42,600 nucleotides of DNA from an uncultured archaeon (GTDB lineage: Archaea; Iainarchaeota; Iainarchaeia; Iainarchaeales; 1-14-0-10-31-34). Below, in pieces: positions 2,676 to 42,600 of this stretch (position 1 is the stretch's first letter; each line of letters begins with the position of its first letter). A program made the translations under genes and the position numbers. The notes beneath the pieces are model-generated. The model was not told the DNA's origin, made no database searches, and saw only the letters and a program-made list of their open reading frames with translations. The stretch is taken from contig CAYTYC010000011.1 in assembly GCA_964442255.1 (NCBI GenBank), positions 1-42,600 on the forward strand, given 5' to 3'.

Positions 2676-3665
2676 TTAAAGAAGGTCTGCAAAGAAAGTG
2701 GTCAAACCAAACCTTACCGCAAAAAACAAGGCAAAAGAAATCAGCAGCAACAAGGGAAGGTACTTCAAACCGTTTTTTTCTTTTCCCGTGTTGATTGTCC
2801 CCATTGTCATTGACGCAAACACGGCGCCCACCAATATAAGGATTGATGAAAAGAACACAATGAATTCAACCGAAAGGCTTTCCTGGTCTCCCACGGCAAC
2901 AAACTGCCCCGCCGAGCCGGCTGACTGGAAGCCGCTTAAATCCTCCGGGTCAATGATTGAGCTCTGCGACCCCAGTATTTCCACTATAAAGGAGCTTATC
3001 CCCAAAAGCATTGGCGCCCCAATCGCTGAAGCAAAGAATATAAGCAAAACATACATGGAAACATTTGCTTTCACTTCCTCCTGAATGGACCTCTGCTCCC
3101 GTAAATCGTCGCTTAACTTCATCAATAAATCCGCTATCTGCCCCCCGGATTGTATTCCCTTTGAAATAAGCCACACGGTTCTCTCCAAAACCTTTGAGCG
3201 GATTCTTGTGGGCAGTTCAAGCAAAGCAATGTCAATTCTTTTTCCTGCAAGTATTTCCTTGCTTGCAAGCTTTAACTCTTTTTCTAATGGCCCAAACTCC
3301 GGGCGCGCGGAAACAAACAGCGCCCTTTCGGTTGTAAGCCCTGACTTAATGTTTGACGCAATCAGCTGCAGCGCGTCCGGAAGAATTTTTTCCACAAATT
3401 TTCCCTTGCTTTCGGATGCAATGCTAAGCCAAACGTAAACTCCTGCAAGAAATAAAACAAACACAACCGGAATGCTTATAAAAACAGGGAAACCCAGAAA
3501 AAAGAACAAATTAAGTGAAACCCCTGTGCTTATCCCCAGCCCGAACAGCACCAAAAACCCGAGAAAGCTTCTTTCGCTTACATCTATCCCCAAATACTCC
3601 AGTTCTTTCCTGAAGCTTTCAACCAACGGCCTTGGAAGTATTGCCCCGACCCTTTCATATTTCAT
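2676..3665 (-). CDS. Type II secretion system F family platform protein (TadC/ArlJ-like)
   Basis: EKILPDALQLIASNIKSGLTTERAL...EFGPL motif, several transmembrane segments, and position downstream of the TadA ATPase. Confidence 0.92.
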   Translation of the reverse strand: MKYERVGAILPRPLVESFRKELEYLGIDVSERSFLGFLVLFGLGISTGVSLNLFFFLGFPVFISIPVVFVLFLAGVYVWLSIASESKGKFVEKILPDALQLIASNIKSGLTTERALFVSARPEFGPLEKELKLASKEILAGKRIDIALLELPTRIRSKVLERTVWLISKGIQSGGQIADLLMKLSDDLREQRSIQEEVKANVSMYVLLIFFASAIGAPMLLGISSFIVEILGSQSSIIDPEDLSGFQSAGSAGQFVAVGDQESLSVEFIVFFSSILILVGAVFASMTMGTINTGKEKNGLKYLPLLLLISFALFFAVRFGLTTFFADLL

Positions 3666-3902
3666 TTTCAGCTCTCCATTAAGGTTTGTTCATGCGCCAG
3701 CACAGTGCCAGCTCCAGCCTTCACCTTTTCATATTTCATTTTCAGCTCTCCATTAAGGTTTGTTCATGCGCCAGCACAGTGCCAGCTCCAGCCTTCACCT
3801 TTTCATATTTCATTTTCAGCTCTCCATTGGAAAGAATTTTTGAAAACATTGGGGAACGCCATCCTAATTCACCTTTTCATATTTCATTTTCAGCTCTCCA
3901 TT
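3649..3902. repeat. CRISPR-like array with a 74-bp period: 35-bp repeat and three 39-bp spacers, derived from the tadB/tadC junction
   Basis: TTCACCTTTTCATATTTCATTTTCAGCTCTCCATT at 3720-3754, 3794-3828 and 3868-3902, plus a degenerate copy ending at 3680. Spacers 3681-3719 and 3755-3793 are identical. Spacer 3829-3867 is unrelated but the same length. Confidence 0.9.
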
Positions 3903-4789
3903 AATGTTGGCCTCTTGGATTTAATTATCCCCAAAAACATGAACTGCCCCACTGAAACCCCTGCAAGCAGAACCCAGAAAAGGAAGCCAGGCAGTGAAAT
4001 CTGCGGAAAGGAAGCAATCACGATGAAAAAAGTTATTCCCAGCGCAGGAATAATGACTCCAATCATCATGTACATTAGGCTTAACAGCTTTAACTCCGCG
4101 CCGTATCTTCGGATTGAAATCCCTTCCTCTTTAATCATTGTCCCCACAAGCTCGTTCATCACATCCGTTACGTCCGCGCCTGCCTTCATTCCGTTCACCA
4201 TCTGCCAGATGCTTCTCCTGAAGAAAGGCGAAGGGTTGTTCATCGCCATTTTTTGGAGTGCCTGTTCCTCTATTGCCCCCGTGCTTATTTCCTCTATGGC
4301 TTTGCTGAATTCCTTGCTTACCGCGCCGTATTTGCCTTCCGCAACCATTGTCATCGCGTCAAACAAGCTTACCCCTGACTGCAGCTGCACCAGCATTGTC
4401 CTTAAAGCGTAAATAAGGTTTCCCTCTAAATCCCTTACCTTTCTTTTGATTAAAATTTTTGGGTACATGCTTACCTGGATAAGAATAAGGAATGCAAGTA
4501 TTGCCCCCGCAGTTGGGGCAAGGAAGAGCGCCTGTTCCGGTGCAATCTTCAAGGCAATCACATAGAATATGAAGCTAAGCAGAAGAAAGTAGATCAGTGT
4601 CAGGCTGAAGCCGATTGCACCGTACTCTTCCGGCTCAAAGTCCATTTGCGCCTGCTTCAGCTCTATTTTCAGGTAGGGAAAGGCGTTTGCGAGCTTTGCC
4701 CCTATTCCAATGAACCTTGCGGAAATGGCTTCCATTAGGGGAGGCGGAAGGAAACTGAAGGGAATTGTTTTCTTTTTTCTTTCAGCCAT
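3890..4789 (-). CDS. Type II secretion system F family platform protein (TadB-like)
   Basis: LIYALRTMLVQLQSGVSLFDAM...YGAVSKEF motif and transmembrane segments. The ATG at 4789 overlaps the end of the ATPase gene. Confidence 0.9.
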   Translation of the reverse strand: MAERKKKTIPFSFLPPPLMEAISARFIGIGAKLANAFPYLKIELKQAQMDFEPEEYGAIGFSLTLIYFLLLSFIFYVIALKIAPEQALFLAPTAGAILAFLILIQVSMYPKILIKRKVRDLEGNLIYALRTMLVQLQSGVSLFDAMTMVAEGKYGAVSKEFSKAIEEISTGAIEEQALQKMAMNNPSPFFRRSIWQMVNGMKAGADVTDVMNELVGTMIKEEGISIRRYGAELKLLSLMYMMIGVIIPALGITFFIVIASFPQISLPGFLFWVLLAGVSVGQFMFLGIIKSKRPTLMES

Positions 4790-6317
4790 CCGCTTCCCCT
4801 TTTTTTTCCAGCAAAAAGTCCGGCAAGGCGTGTTTTTCCATCGGCTCAATTATTCTTTCCGGTTCCCTGTAATAGTTTGCGATTACCCGTCCCACGTCGT
4901 TTATTTTCCTGATGTTTTTTTCAACCATCCATTCCAGTATGCTTTGCTTTACTTTCAGATCGCTTTTTATTTCGCTCATGCTTAACCCCGTGTGCAGTCC
5001 CAGTTCATCGTAAAGCCGGATGCTTTCCGCGTGCTTTGTTATTTCGTCTGTTGCGCCTTTCCACCTGTACAAAACATTGGGCTTAATTACTTCGTCCCCT
5101 GACCCCCGTTTTTCCGGAATGAATTCCGCCACCTGCAGCACCCTTCTTGCCCCTATCCTCCTGTTCCTGAACATGACCACATTCAAATGAACCGCGTCCA
5201 GCATTGTTGTTGGAATTGAAATCGGCGGGTTAACCAGCCTCCTGATTGTTTCTTCCGCAGTGTTTGCGTGCACTGTCGTGTAAGCGCTGTGCCCGGTGTG
5301 CATTCCTTCAAACAATACTTCAGCCTCTTTTTGCCTCCTGATTTCCCCCACAATTATCCTGTCCGGCCTCATCCTCAAGGAGTTCACAAGCAAATCCAGC
5401 ATGGAAATTCCGCCTTTTCCTTCAGGATTCGGCTCCCTTGTTGTTAATGGAACCCAGTGCAGAAATGGCGGAAGCATTAGTTCGCGGGTGTCTTCAATTG
5501 AAATAACCCGGTGGTTTGGCTGCAGGAAAGGCATTAAAACGTTCAGGAAACTGGTCTTCCCCGATGCAGTGCCTCCGCTCATGAGGACGTTGATTTCATA
5601 CTGCAATGCCATCCAGAGCAGCGCCATTACTTCAGGGTTTGATGTGTTGTTTTTAATGAAGTCTGTGACTGTCCACGGCTCTCTCCTGAATCTCCTGATT
5701 GTTAAGGTGTTTCCTTTGCTTGAAATGGGGTAAAGGGTTGCGTTTGCCCTGTCACCTGTCACCAGGTGGGCGTCAAGCAGCGGATGCAGGGTGGTGATTT
5801 GCTTTCCAACCCTTCTTGCAATGATTGCCGCATAGTTTTGGATTTCTTCTTCCGGCTCAATGTAAATGTTTGTTTTCAGCCACCCGAATTCCTTGTGGTA
5901 AACCCATACGGGGTCTTTTGCCGCGTTTACCACTATTTCCTCCAAATTGTGGTCTGATAAGAGGAACTCTATTCTCCCCAGCCCAAGCATTTCCTGCAAC
6001 AGGATTCCGATCAGGGTTTTCTTTGTTTTTTCTTCCATGTCAGGGAGTTCCCTTGCGAGGGTGGATTCCGCCCTGAAAGCAAATTTTTCTTTCAGTGATT
6101 CAATGAATTTTGCGTCCAGCATTTTTTCCGCGTCAATTGAAATATCGGTTATGATTGAGTTTTTCAGGTTCTGGAGAAGCGCTTTTGTTCCCGGCCCGTA
6201 TTCCGGGAAATTCAGGTAGTATATGCTTACAAATGAGGCGGACTTTTCAATTATTTCAACGTCCACTTCCACATTGTCTACTTCCAGCCTGTAAGTTTTC
6301 AGCACTTTTTCCTTCAT
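4782..6317 (-). CDS. Type II/IV secretion ATPase (VirB11/TadA/ArlI family)
   Basis: Walker A GGTASGKT, SIEDTREL, LRMRPDRIIVGEIR and His box HTGH...TVHA. Confidence 0.96.
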   Translation of the reverse strand: MKEKVLKTYRLEVDNVEVDVEIIEKSASFVSIYYLNFPEYGPGTKALLQNLKNSIITDISIDAEKMLDAKFIESLKEKFAFRAESTLARELPDMEEKTKKTLIGILLQEMLGLGRIEFLLSDHNLEEIVVNAAKDPVWVYHKEFGWLKTNIYIEPEEEIQNYAAIIARRVGKQITTLHPLLDAHLVTGDRANATLYPISSKGNTLTIRRFRREPWTVTDFIKNNTSNPEVMALLWMALQYEINVLMSGGTASGKTSFLNVLMPFLQPNHRVISIEDTRELMLPPFLHWVPLTTREPNPEGKGGISMLDLLVNSLRMRPDRIIVGEIRRQKEAEVLFEGMHTGHSAYTTVHANTAEETIRRLVNPPISIPTTMLDAVHLNVVMFRNRRIGARRVLQVAEFIPEKRGSGDEVIKPNVLYRWKGATDEITKHAESIRLYDELGLHTGLSMSEIKSDLKVKQSILEWMVEKNIRKINDVGRVIANYYREPERIIEPMEKHALPDFLLEKKGEADG

Positions 6318-6353: not shown

Positions 6354-8114
6354 CTAAAATCTTTTTTTCTTTTTTTCCTGCTTTTTCTTTACTTTTTGGA
6401 TTGCTTCAATTAAGTCTATTTTTGTGTCCACTATTTTGATGTCCCCTACCGCGGGATACTTTATTTTTATTAACCCGCTGTCTTCCAGGATGTCGCAGCA
6501 TTCCTTCAGCCTTTTGTTGTCCATTTTCAGCTCTTTTTGCGCCTGCCTGAAGCTCACGGTTTCGCGCTCTTTTATCAGTGTAAGCAGTTTGTCAAAGCCG
6601 GTCACGATTTTTGGGGTTTCAATTTCCTTGAATATTTCCTTTACTTCCGGCTTTTTTTTCTTTGGAATTCCTGTCGGAACCTCGAATGCCTTTGCATCCG
6701 CTGCCTTTTTTTCTGTCCCTTGTTTTGATTCAATAAGGCTTATCAGTTTGTCAAAGTCGCTTACAAGCTTTGATGCCCCCACTTGCTTGATGTTTGCCTG
6801 CATTTCCCCCCTTGAAAGGTTGTACCGGTTCATGAGTGTTTCAACCTTGTTTTCCAGTTCCTTTATTTTTCCTGTGCCCACTCCCTGCATTTCTTTTTCT
6901 TCCGCCAGCCCGACGTTTTCCGTTGGAGAGGGCGCAATTTCCCCGGCCGGCCGGTATTTCTCCATTATTTTTTGAATTGCCTCCCTTTTTTTGTCTGGAC
7001 TTTCTTTTTCCACTTTTTTTCCAGCCATTGGCTCCCTGTATCCTTTCAGTATTTCTTCAACTGTTTTTTTCCTTTTCTTTTCGGGTTCTTCTGTTTTCTT
7101 TGGGGCGGGCTGCGGGGCGTCTTTGCTTTCAGCCCCGGTTTGGGGTTTGCTTGTTTCAATTTCCGGTTCTTTCAGTGCATCTTCCGTTTCCTTTTTTCCT
7201 GCGCTGCGCCATTGCTTTTTTTCCCCCGTTTTGGGAGCCTTTTTTGCCGTTTTTTCTTTTTTTGCCTTTAATTCCAGCAGCCTTTTTTTTTCGCTGTAAT
7301 CGTACATTTTTTCCCTGAACTCTTTTTCGGTTACCTGTCTTCTGAAATAGGATTTCCTCAAGTGCTTTATTTTTTCCTCCATTTCCTCCAGTTCTTCTTC
7401 TGCTGTTTTTTTTTCCGGAGCCTGTTCCGTTGCAACCGGTTTTTCGGCTGCAGCCTGCGCGGGCGGCGCATAGCTTTTCCCGGGAAATTGTATTCCTGGA
7501 CGGATTATCCGGATTCCGCCTTCTGCCTTGATTATTGTTTGCGCGCCATTTTTCTTTTTCTTTGTTGTTTTCTTTTTTGGTTTTTTTTCTTTTTTTTCCC
7601 CTTTTTTTTGGTATTTTTTGAGTATTTCCGATATTTTTTCTTTTTTTCTTTTTTTTCCCCTTTTTTTTGGCGCCTTTTTTTCTTTTGCCTTTGCTTTTGT
7701 TTTTCTCCTGCTTTTTCTTTTTTTCTTTTTTTCCAGGATTTTTCTTTTCTTTGCTTCTTCCGCCGTTTCCGGTATTCCGGAAATTTTTTTCCCAAGTGTT
7801 TCTTTTGTTTTCCTCAAAACCTCCAAATGCATCAGCGCCCTTTCCACTTCAACGGCCATTCTTTCCTCCTGCCTTATAAGCGTCATTACATTTTCTTGCT
7901 GTCTTTTTTTCCAGTCCCTGTCTTTTTTTCTTCCAAGTATTCTTCCAAAAAGCCACAGCCTGTGCCCGCCTTTTTTTCGGAGCTTTTTTTCTTCGCCTTT
8001 CCTTTTTTTCCTTATTTTGTCCAGGTTTTCCCCCAGCTTTTGAAGCTCTTTTTCAGCGTTTTCCCCGATTGCCCGGAATTTTTCCTTTATTTCGCTCATT
8101 TTTTTTGTCCCCAT
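6354..8114 (-). CDS. Lys/Glu-rich low-complexity protein with a C-terminal winged-helix-like domain
   Basis: 586-aa ORF co-oriented with the pilus genes. The C-terminal FDKLLTLIKERETVSFRQAQKELKM...CDILEDSGLIKIKYP fits a wHTH pattern. Confidence 0.7.
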   Translation of the reverse strand: MGTKKMSEIKEKFRAIGENAEKELQKLGENLDKIRKKRKGEEKKLRKKGGHRLWLFGRILGRKKDRDWKKRQQENVMTLIRQEERMAVEVERALMHLEVLRKTKETLGKKISGIPETAEEAKKRKILEKKKKRKSRRKTKAKAKEKKAPKKRGKKRKKEKISEILKKYQKKGEKKEKKPKKKTTKKKKNGAQTIIKAEGGIRIIRPGIQFPGKSYAPPAQAAAEKPVATEQAPEKKTAEEELEEMEEKIKHLRKSYFRRQVTEKEFREKMYDYSEKKRLLELKAKKEKTAKKAPKTGEKKQWRSAGKKETEDALKEPEIETSKPQTGAESKDAPQPAPKKTEEPEKKRKKTVEEILKGYREPMAGKKVEKESPDKKREAIQKIMEKYRPAGEIAPSPTENVGLAEEKEMQGVGTGKIKELENKVETLMNRYNLSRGEMQANIKQVGASKLVSDFDKLISLIESKQGTEKKAADAKAFEVPTGIPKKKKPEVKEIFKEIETPKIVTGFDKLLTLIKERETVSFRQAQKELKMDNKRLKECCDILEDSGLIKIKYPAVGDIKIVDTKIDLIEAIQKVKKKQEKKKKRF

Positions 8115-25800: not shown

Positions 25801-25995
25801 TAAAAGTTTCAATAACAGCCTGCTAAAAGTTTCAATAACAGCCTGCTAAAAGTTTCAATAACAGCCTGCTAAAAGTTTNNNNNNNNNNNNNNNNNNNNNN
25901 NNNNNNNNNNNNNNNNNNNNNNNNNNNNNNNNNNNNNNNNNNNNNNNNNNNNNNNNNNNNNNNNNNNNNNNNNNNNNNCAATAACAGCCTGCTAA
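25801..25995. repeat. 23-bp perfect tandem repeat spanning a scaffold gap
   Basis: TAAAAGTTTCAATAACAGCCTGC three times plus a partial copy, then 100 N (25879-25978), then the unit resumes. Confidence 0.92.
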
Positions 25996-37823: not shown

Positions 37824-38609
37824 ATGAACGGACTGGAGTTGTTCGGAAAGTTTGCCTTCAGGCCCAACCAATTGAAGTACTGCGGCGAGGAAGGATTTTG
37901 GAAGCATTTCCTCCAGTACCTGAATTCCGGTGAAACTGAAGAAAACCTGCGCTCAAAAATGAAATCCTTTCCTGTTGCCTTCCCTTTTCTTTCCCTTATC
38001 GCAAGAAAAAACTGCGCGGAAGATTTTTTGGATGAAAGGGTTGTGGAGGCCTACTGGATTGGGAACAGCCTTTTGGAGCAGGTTAAGGCAGAGGACATCA
38101 ACAAACTGGTTTTGAATGAGCTTACAAAGAATGAATCCCTGCAGGAAAACATCGCACAGGAAATAGCCAAAAAAATCCCTTTTTCCGCCTTTTCCCACCA
38201 TTCCCTGCACGTTTTTTTGCTCCATGCAGCCTCCGGAACCGAGCCCCGGATGGCTAAGCACCTGGATTCCTGCAGAATTTCCTGGGGCGAGGTTCTGAAG
38301 GTTAAGGGCGAAACCCGGATGGCTAAGCACCTGGATTCCTGCAGAATTTCCTGGGGCGAGGTTCTGAAGGTTAAGGGCGAAAAGGCCACAGTTCTTTTCA
38401 ATCCCATCTCCCGTTCAAACGGAAAATTCCTGCTTTCAGAGCCAAAGGAAAAAGAAATTGCTGTCCCAAAGGAATTCAGCCTTCAATTGGAGAGAGGCGA
38501 TTTTGCTGCCTTTCACTGGAATACTGCGGCGGTAAAGCTTTCCCCAAAGCAATTAGCGAATTTAAAAAAGTACACGGAACACAACCTGAAAGCAGTGAAC
38601 TCATTTTAG
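37824..38609 (+). CDS. DUF6390-like protein with a HypC-like C-terminal part
   Basis: FAFRPNQLKYCG, VVEAYWIGNSLL, HHSLH, CRISWGEV and FHW. Confidence 0.78.
   Translation: MNGLELFGKFAFRPNQLKYCGEEGFWKHFLQYLNSGETEENLRSKMKSFPVAFPFLSLIARKNCAEDFLDERVVEAYWIGNSLLEQVKAEDINKLVLNELTKNESLQENIAQEIAKKIPFSAFSHHSLHVFLLHAASGTEPRMAKHLDSCRISWGEVLKVKGETRMAKHLDSCRISWGEVLKVKGEKATVLFNPISRSNGKFLLSEPKEKEIAVPKEFSLQLERGDFAAFHWNTAAVKLSPKQLANLKKYTEHNLKAVNSF
38245..38382 (+). repeat. Perfect 69-bp in-frame tandem duplication
   Basis: 38245-38313 equals 38314-38382, duplicating RMAKHLDSCRISWGEVLKVKGE. Confidence 0.92.
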
Positions 38610-42335: not shown

Positions 42336-42600
42336 ATGCTTAAGAGGAAAATTACTAAAAAAAAAGTGATTGAAAAACTGCGGGAAGGCGCGTACATTAA
42401 AGGCGCTGTTTTTGACAATAAAGCTTTCCGTAAGGATCTTAAAGCAATAAGATTTGATTTGCGGGATGCGGTTTTGACTGGTGTTCGGATGGATCGTGCG
42501 GATTTGCGGGATGCGGTTTTGACTGGTGTTCGGATGGATCGTGCGGATTTGCGGGATGCGGTTTTGACTGGTGTTCGGATGGATCGTGCGGATTTGCGGG
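42336..42600 (+). CDS. Pentapeptide-repeat protein (truncated by the window end)
   Basis: Manual translation gives MLKRKITKKKVIEKLREG...DLRD-AVLTG-VRMDR-ADLRD repeats. The frame is open to the window end. Confidence 0.8.
   Translation, partial: MLKRKITKKKVIEKLREGAYIKGAVFDNKAFRKDLKAIRFDLRDAVLTGVRMDRADLRDAVLTGVRMDRADLRDAVLTGVRMDRADLR
42456..42600 (+). repeat. 45-bp perfect tandem repeat (at least 3.2 copies)
   Basis: GATTTGCGGGATGCGGTTTTGACTGGTGTTCGGATGGATCGTGCG at 42456, 42501 and 42546, plus a partial copy at 42591. Confidence 0.92.

Follow-up and report, generated by a model that had tools for sequence, protein, structure and literature searches.

Can an ordinary gene junction turn into something that looks like a CRISPR array, and if so, by what means? 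The question is raised by a locus in a 42,600-nucleotide (nt) stretch of DNA from an uncultured archaeon of the order Iainarchaeales (contig CAYTYC010000011.1 of assembly GCA_964442255.1), hereafter the window, which is the entire contig C11 of a metagenome-assembled genome (MAG) of 1.277 Mb in 51 contigs that is 93.8% complete. At positions 3646-3902, where a tadB-like pilus gene ends and a tadC-like pilus gene begins, the junction of the two genes is present four times with short inserts between the copies. The locus is one of 23 similarly built loci in this genome, here called scars, and we lean towards the interpretation that they arose by off-target spacer integration of the CRISPR type, followed by duplication of one unit.

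The repeated tadB/tadC junction

A direct-repeat search detected four copies of the repeat in window 3646-3902 at spacings of 74, 74 and 74 nt (starts in Table 1), and Tandem Repeats Finder (TRF) reported 3649-3828 with a period of 74 and 99% matches. The repeat, R, is 35 nt long and exact among copies 2-4, and the three 39-nt inserts between the copies follow in the order S1, S1, S3. By manual count S3 equals S1 at 8 of 39 positions, about as many as chance would give. Read on the minus strand, R is ..ATG GAG AGC TGA AA ATG AAA TAT GAA.., the native junction of the tadB-like stop and the tadC-like start, and the outer copies hold the real stop of the one gene and the real start of the other. 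A previous examination of the letters alone (the sequence-only reading) had described four copies at an exact 74-bp period with three 39-bp spacers, two identical and one unrelated, and had recognized the repeat as this junction with the real stop and start in the outer copies; the repeat search, TRF and our reading of the sequence agree with it. Across the 1.28-Mb genome R, S1 and S3 have no other copy, the longest further exact matches being 13-15 nt, so the array is not a product of chance. No Rfam family matched the array region.

The same junction was then read in relatives, a comparison that the sequence-only reading had proposed. A DNA search of 41 genomes gave matches in 31, and the junction could be read at nine loci (L002-L010). 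It is single in all nine, with a tadB-like stop followed 1-16 nt later by one tadC-like start of the form M(x)Y[EQY][KR]I... By match coordinates the window is ~215-224 nt longer at the junction than G002, G003 and G033, an excess that corresponds to three extra 74-nt units.

Canonical CRISPR arrays have at least three near-identical direct repeats of 23-55 nt and spacers of similar length, and four 35-nt repeats with three 39-nt inserts are found here. The spacers of a canonical array are all different; S1 occurs twice in the tad array, leaving two distinct inserts. Nor is there a dedicated family of non-coding repeats with a leader, as R is a coding junction, unlike the relatives' repeats and without an Rfam match. 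The copied start and stop also enclose two short reading frames (Table 1). By our own arithmetic, roughly every second 13-codon insert would be open in any one frame; the mini frames at 3668..3813 are open by geometry and are no evidence of a gene.

Similar scars across the genome

A scan of the whole genome detected 48 direct repeats of at least 24 nt at distances of 60-90 nt, and 26 of them lay at 72-74 nt, with 1-3 at each other distance; a variant of the scan placed 23 of 48 at 72-74 nt. After curation 23 loci were retained, the tad array included, with R of 34-42 nt, inserts of 32-39 nt and periods of 71-76. Four repeats that look short are 34-38-nt repeats with one or two mismatches. At least eight of the 23 loci have two or more units, three of these at scaffold gaps, and two different inserts occur at the tad locus only. 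The array, which the sequence-only reading had taken for a one-off, is thus a member of a set and is distinct in its second, different insert and its duplicated unit.

Four candidates with periods of 72-74 (C21:15121, C17:27763, C22:136 and C17:16800) were dropped because dispersed-repeat, hairpin or tRNA-end contexts blur the boundary between R and insert. In the last, a 72-nt unit is present 2.4 times beside a tRNA gene (C17:16800-16974), each unit beginning with a degenerate tRNA 3' end. At C13:2189-2567 (L026), scars at 2189 and 2286 have overlapping targets whose repeats share 14 nt, the second scar spanning a scaffold gap, and the pair looks like an insertion hot spot.

The scars share a target motif and an insert orientation. 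In 13 of the 23 loci the trinucleotide RGC (purine-G-C) immediately adjoins one side of R and not the other, and in no locus both sides; random placement averaged 1.47 such loci and never exceeded 6 in 5000 trials. An expectation-maximisation motif search over orientation yielded 6.57 bits vs 3.5 ± 0.34, a value reached by none of 200 random sets. Viewed in the motif orientation, T is the first base of 13 of the 23 inserts and TT the first two bases of 9, and by our own count YT starts the insert in 10 of the 13 RGC-oriented loci; part of the first-base T bias, unlike the bias at the second base, follows from the definition of the boundary. On the minus strand of the tad locus, GGC follows R1' (copy 1, on the tadC side), TT begins S3, and the next repeat downstream of S3 is followed by the GGC of S1. 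The minus orientation of this locus is taken only from the flank motif and from the order of events proposed below. The ends of R were also considered as a mimic of the CRISPR repeat end ..TTGAAAG; this was dropped as a motif of its own, and TGAAA was kept within the wider motif searched.

Some scars lie inside genes. The single cysteinyl-tRNA synthetase (CysRS) gene of the MAG (P0001, 491 amino acids (aa)) carries one at C27:6124-6235 (L018), where a 38-nt stretch copied from within the gene for adenylosuccinate synthetase on C3 and a 37-nt target duplication add 75 nt in frame, and the gene stays open. The resulting 25-residue insertion, made of the insert and the second R, is absent in all five aligned relatives (463-501 aa) and sits just before the HIGH motif. 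The only protein match above 65% identity was the MAG's own copy. Elsewhere, removal of one unit merges split frames, at C22:23378 (225 and 218 to 331 aa) and C4:1709 (332 to 431 aa) as well as at C3:55951, C15:14606 and C12:6400, the last being a 38-34-38 scar.

Five of the 24 inserts are exact 35-38-nt copies of other sites in the same genome (Table 1), and the flanks of these donors are unlike R. No clear protospacer adjacent motif emerged from the five donors. The other 19 inserts, S1 and S3 included, are untraced, and R has no exact match in the metagenome contigs. The mean G+C of the inserts is 0.43 vs 0.46 for the genome. Three of the five donors lie on C3, which at 71 kb is 5.6% of the genome (chance ~0.002 by a rough calculation of our own), one of them inside a gene for a XerA-like tyrosine recombinase, and the cluster may be an acquisition hot spot. 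C3 itself was considered as a mobile element and rejected, as it is ordinary chromosome with RadA, RPA, three aminoacyl-tRNA synthetases and purine genes.

The geometry of the scars resembles that of CRISPR arrays in relatives, where repeats of 37 nt come with periods of 73-81. Cas1 was found in 10 of 121 genomes of the order, the closest relative, G002, among them. In G002 a module of Cas6, a gene of unknown kind, reverse transcriptase (RT) and Cas1 is cut by a contig end (C5:198-4955, L017), and a separate 9-kb contig holds ~30 units with a 37-nt repeat, spacers of 36-44 nt and, as at the tad locus, one duplicated repeat-spacer unit (C6:655-3100, L042). The arrays of G026 (L033:5285-7140, periods 73-79) and G075 (L032:10913-11090, periods 74-76) also have 37-nt repeats, and that of G034 has a 30-nt repeat with periods of 65-69. 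The arrays of G002, G026 and G075 consist of dedicated non-coding repeats beside cas1, with 3 to ~30 units, whereas the repeat of a scar is any sequence that was struck and differs from locus to locus. The leader of the G002 array ends ..GGCAGG, and the motif of the scars is R/RGC.

Table 1. Features of the tad locus, its operon and the traced insert donors (window positions unless a contig is named)
Feature	Position	Strand	Remarks
T2SSE pilus assembly ATPase	4782..6317	-	PF00437, E 8.8e-33; upstream, same operon
tadB-like pilus platform gene, T2SSF, 319 aa	3890..4849	-	PF00482, E 9e-16; ends ..TLMES*
R copy 4	3868..3902	-	exact 35-nt repeat; real tadB-like stop TGA 3892-3890
Insert S3, 39 nt	3829..3867	-	unrelated to S1; minus strand begins TT
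R copy 3	3794..3828	-	exact 35-nt repeat
Insert S1, second identical copy, 39 nt	3755..3793	-	
R copy 2	3720..3754	-	exact 35-nt repeat
Insert S1, first copy, 39 nt	3681..3719	-	minus strand begins GGC, remaking the target motif beside the repeat upstream of S1
R1' (copy 1)	3646..3680	-	real tadC-like start ATG 3665-3663
GGC directly beside R1'	3643..3645	-	RGC target motif, common to 12 other scars
Two identical 23-codon mini frames	3813-3742, 3739-3668	-	copied tadC start, then S1, then copied tadB stop
tadC-like pilus platform gene, T2SSF, 329 aa	2676..3665	-	PF00482, E 1.5e-15; starts MKYERVGAIL
Insert donor sites	C3:8668-8702; C27:4708-4742; C3:62838-62872; C3:55055-55092; C4:64396-64430		

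Just upstream of the pilus ATPase, the minus strand of window 6354-8114 encodes a 586-aa Lys/Glu-rich low-complexity protein, and this explains why long runs rich in T appear on the + strand at 7549-7753.

How the scars may have arisen

How far the array can be trusted depends in part on its assembly. The assembly of the MAG has a depth of ~9x and apparently used k=55, and TRF shows many perfect tandem arrays genome-wide that are just long enough to close a cycle in a graph of k=55: arrays with a period below 55 have a length of period + 55 (e.g., 47, 33, 27 and 23 nt), and those with periods of 72-74 have 2.4-2.6 copies. The count of two S1 units is accordingly a minimum imposed by the assembler. 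Two sequencing runs of one study, X1 and X2, hold the region, as k=31 contigs only. In X1, one contig runs from tadC to 3682 at 8.7x, another starts at 3875 at 8.6x, and the S1 loop is a 104-nt contig over 3653-3756 (74+30 nt) at 14.2x, corresponding to ~1.6 S1 units per genome. No S3 branch was found in X1, where the S1 loop contig is unbroken at the place at which S3 would join. In X2, a contig covers 3300-3749 at 5.8x, and a 104-nt contig over 3794-3897, at 3.59x, is R-S3-R. X1 thus seems to lack S3 or to contain little of it, and the samples seem to differ in this unit. These contigs are of low depth, a filter drops some of them, the cover of X2 has holes, and since R is longer than 31 nt they cannot show flank linkage, an empty site or copy number.

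The sequence-only reading had suggested ectopic spacer integration or another fixed-length mechanism. The foreign inserts, the 22 similarly built loci, the shared motif and the CRISPR geometry speak for this suggestion; the Cas1-like integrase and the source of the tad inserts that would complete it were not found in the MAG and the contigs searched. It had also held that the lack of such an integrase, together with gradual tandem decay in relatives, would speak against it; no Cas1-like gene was found in the MAG, and gradual tandem decay was not seen in the relatives.

The course of events that we favour is as follows. An integrase of the CRISPR-adaptation type (Cas1-Cas2-like, measuring out ~37 bp of target and ~36-39 nt of insert) would have cut the DNA around the tadB/tadC junction in a staggered manner and joined in S1, a short piece of DNA, and gap repair would have duplicated the junction. 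The S1 unit would next have been duplicated by recombination or slippage between the repeats. Because S1 starts with GGC on the minus strand, it would give the upstream repeat the preferred flank again (R, then RGC), and S3 would have been inserted last, at the tadB end, into the target that S1 had recreated. That S3 came last is consistent with X1, the run in which this unit was missing. With a stop and a start restored by every R, both genes remain intact and the scar could be tolerated. The same enzyme would have acted in the cell, rather than in the tube, at no fewer than 22 further sites, and its gene may lie in the unbinned 6% or on a mobile element, or may since have been lost.

A number of observations weigh against off-target spacer integration. 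The absence of cas genes, which the sequence-only reading had noted for the neighbourhood of the array, extends to the whole MAG: no match to the Cas1, Cas2, Cas6, RAMP or RT families was found anywhere in it. Its sole cas-type match is a weak one (24.5 bits) to a solo Cas4-like nuclease; solo Cas4 genes are described as common in the accessible part of PMC5704561. Neither a true CRISPR array nor any of the relatives' CRISPR repeats was found in the MAG. The closest relative, G002, bears Cas1 and has no scar in 956,927 bases scanned, so possessing a Cas1 system does not by itself yield scars; the sole scan match there (C2:91262) is a coding protein repeat and was rejected as a scar. The search for spacer sources proposed by the sequence-only reading came back empty, as S1 had no exact match in viral or genome contigs and S3 none in viral or metagenome contigs.

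Further points against this interpretation come from the scars themselves. R1' differs from R at four of seven terminal bases at the tadC-side end (the first seven bases on the + strand), which a clean target duplication does not predict; R1' looks native, judging from its fit to the TadC consensus of the relatives. By our own calculation the lengths of R and insert are negatively correlated and their sum is tight, which two independent rulers do not require. The motif search itself set the tad locus in the + orientation, and TGAAA at R ends (6 of 23 loci vs 0.99 expected) is marginal, as the best 5-mer reaches 6 in ~5% of random sets. On the side of the data, the k=31 contigs, being built from words shorter than R, cannot tell a chromosomal insertion from a separate (S+R)n molecule, and S3 is supported by the MAG plus one 3.6x contig. 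Finally, the MAG has 28 near-perfect tandem repeats with a period of at least 20 (21.9 per Mb) vs 3 (3.3 per Mb) in 900 kb of G002, and this excess shows something unusual about the organism or the data set.

Among the alternatives, the one that survives best is an integrase of fixed geometry other than Cas1-Cas2, archaeal or encoded by a virus or plasmid, that cuts ~37 bp apart beside RGC and pastes in pieces of ~36 nt. It would fit a MAG lacking cas and RT genes, a Cas1-bearing relative that is free of scars over 957 kb, a period that is tighter than R or insert alone, and a target motif that lies outside the duplicated segment. It would leave unexplained, however, why the geometry of the scars coincides with that of genuine CRISPR arrays in the order. 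No enzyme emerged as a candidate, binning often loses CRISPR loci, and we know of no integrase but Cas1-Cas2 with a target duplication of this length. Off-target behaviour of Cas1-Cas2 is already described in the accessible part of PMC6698737. We regard a non-Cas enzyme as possible but rather unlikely. In its boldest form, which we also hold to be doubtful, an integrase of an unknown kind, not Cas1 or else borne by a virus, plasmid or partner cell, would write ~36-nt pieces of intracellular DNA into RGC-flanked 37-bp chromosomal targets, and the tad junction would be a CRISPR-like array at its birth, gaining a unit between two samples of one microbial mat.

It is less probable still that the repeat-insert-repeat structures were created by library preparation or assembly and do not exist in the chromosomes of the cells. 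This suspicion is fed by the ~9x assembly with its apparent k=55, in which many arrays are period + 55 long and 55-mers are repeated at scaffold gaps. The length of R + insert + R (~110 nt) equals 2k, 8 of the 23 loci close a k=55 cycle, and the MAG has the excess of tandem repeats over G002 given above (28 vs 3). The CysRS search, moreover, offered no near-identical protein from another assembly for comparison, and k=31 contigs cannot prove linkage of insert and flank. From the logic of the graph, though, a k=55 contig that passes through an R of 35-39 nt would need reads that join flank, R and insert, and the k=31 contigs, assembled independently from two runs, contain both S1 and S3 at roughly the depth of the genome. 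Exact 35-38-nt inserts from the organism's own genome are also far more frequent than its likely share of the mat community would predict, and an artefact would have to produce the one-sided RGC motif and the oriented T start of the inserts. To our knowledge, no artefact yields a motif, oriented ends and self-derived inserts of fixed length together. The idea that the assembler had worked small circles of S+R into the contig was also considered, and was rejected by reasoning, since a k=55 graph has a k larger than R.

Several of the 28 tandem repeats end contigs or abut N gaps, so that their assembled copy numbers are provisional. In the window, a perfect 23-nt tandem array of 3.4 copies at 25801-25878, just upstream of a minus-strand gene start, runs into the N run 25879-25978; a perfect 69-nt tandem duplication at 38245-38382 lies in frame within a 282-codon open frame; and a perfect 45-nt tandem array of 3.2 copies occupies the contig end at 42456-42600, where the assembly probably broke.

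That the junction was simply duplicated in tandem by replication slippage and one unit overwritten later appears very unlikely; the sequence-only reading had already objected that slippage explains two identical units but not an unrelated insert of equal length. The two identical copies of S1, the richness of the genome in perfect tandem repeats and the resemblance of the S1 end to the tadB end (6 of 8 bases alike) are what slippage might leave. Slippage should, however, repeat contiguous native sequence, so that tadC/tadB sequence is expected between the repeats, whereas S1 and S3 are not native to either gene, match nothing local and are unrelated to each other despite their equal length. 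Moreover, 22 other loci hold single, unrelated inserts of the same size.

Arrays lying away from cas genes (orphan or isolated CRISPR arrays) were reportedly surveyed by Shmakov et al. in 2020, and the tad array resembles them in having a repeat-spacer structure without adjacent cas genes; orphan arrays usually retain a recognizable CRISPR repeat family, however, whereas the tad repeat is a gene junction unique to this genome. That it works as such an array, supplying guide RNAs for effectors encoded elsewhere, is hardly credible even with four repeats and two different CRISPR-sized spacers inside a transcribed operon, given that no Cas6, RAMP or other cas gene was found, that the repeat is coding sequence without an Rfam match, that one spacer is duplicated, and that the 22 sister loci hold one insert each, some of them inside genes. 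On balance, we favour the view that the tad array is a set of insertion scars and not a working CRISPR locus.

Relation to known integration systems

Non-canonical integration by Cas1-Cas2, giving 'neo-CRISPR' loci, was reportedly observed in E. coli with the acquisition genes artificially switched on (Nivala, Shipman & Church, Nat Microbiol, 2018). We take the scars for a natural form of this laboratory phenomenon, spread over many sites and lacking the enzyme. As far as the accessible parts of PMC6698737 and bioRxiv 10.1101/148544 describe them, neo-CRISPR loci likewise consist of a spacer-sized insert flanked by a repeat-length duplication of ordinary target DNA, take some of their inserts from the cell's own genome, and begin an array when a second integration enters the new 'repeat'. 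A neo-CRISPR locus should be absent in relatives and consist of foreign DNA plus a duplicated target, and the present scars are absent at nine of nine related junctions and in five of five CysRS relatives, with inserts unlike local sequence. It should also draw on intracellular DNA, as 5 of the 24 inserts do by being same-genome copies, the other 19 being untraced. Unlike the E. coli case as described in these sources, the scars are natural, number 23 in a 1.28-Mb archaeal genome, include one with two inserts, and come without any cas gene found. For natural neo-CRISPR loci, the accessible part of bioRxiv 10.1101/148544 mentions 'circumstantial evidence ... in two other species'.

An archaeal enzyme offers a second comparison. 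In vitro, according to the accessible part of PMC6698737, Cas1-Cas2 of Pyrococcus furiosus integrates in pairs at non-CRISPR sites that are separated by the length of a repeat, and a short motif across the leader-repeat junction guides it. That motif lies partly outside the duplicated segment, as RGC does here. The details differ: the P. furiosus system, in the same source, has a 30-bp spacing, a CCCT/GTTA junction motif and no preferred insert orientation, whereas the scars have a spacing of ~37 bp, an R/RGC motif and an oriented, T-rich insert start.

The origin of CRISPR arrays is an open question, and in the accessible parts of the sources above the direct evidence comes only from E. coli with overexpressed acquisition genes. 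If the scars are real, this genome holds a natural record of two dozen mis-aimed integrations, and one site has already grown to three units with two inserts, seemingly differing between samples. The target motif R/RGC and the bias at the insert ends would be testable in vitro. The scars would further show what such an enzyme costs its host, in split genes and in a 25-residue insertion in an essential tRNA synthetase, and would raise the question of where the enzyme resides, as the binned genome has none. For annotation they carry a warning, namely that a 'mini CRISPR array' found without cas genes may be no array but a scar.

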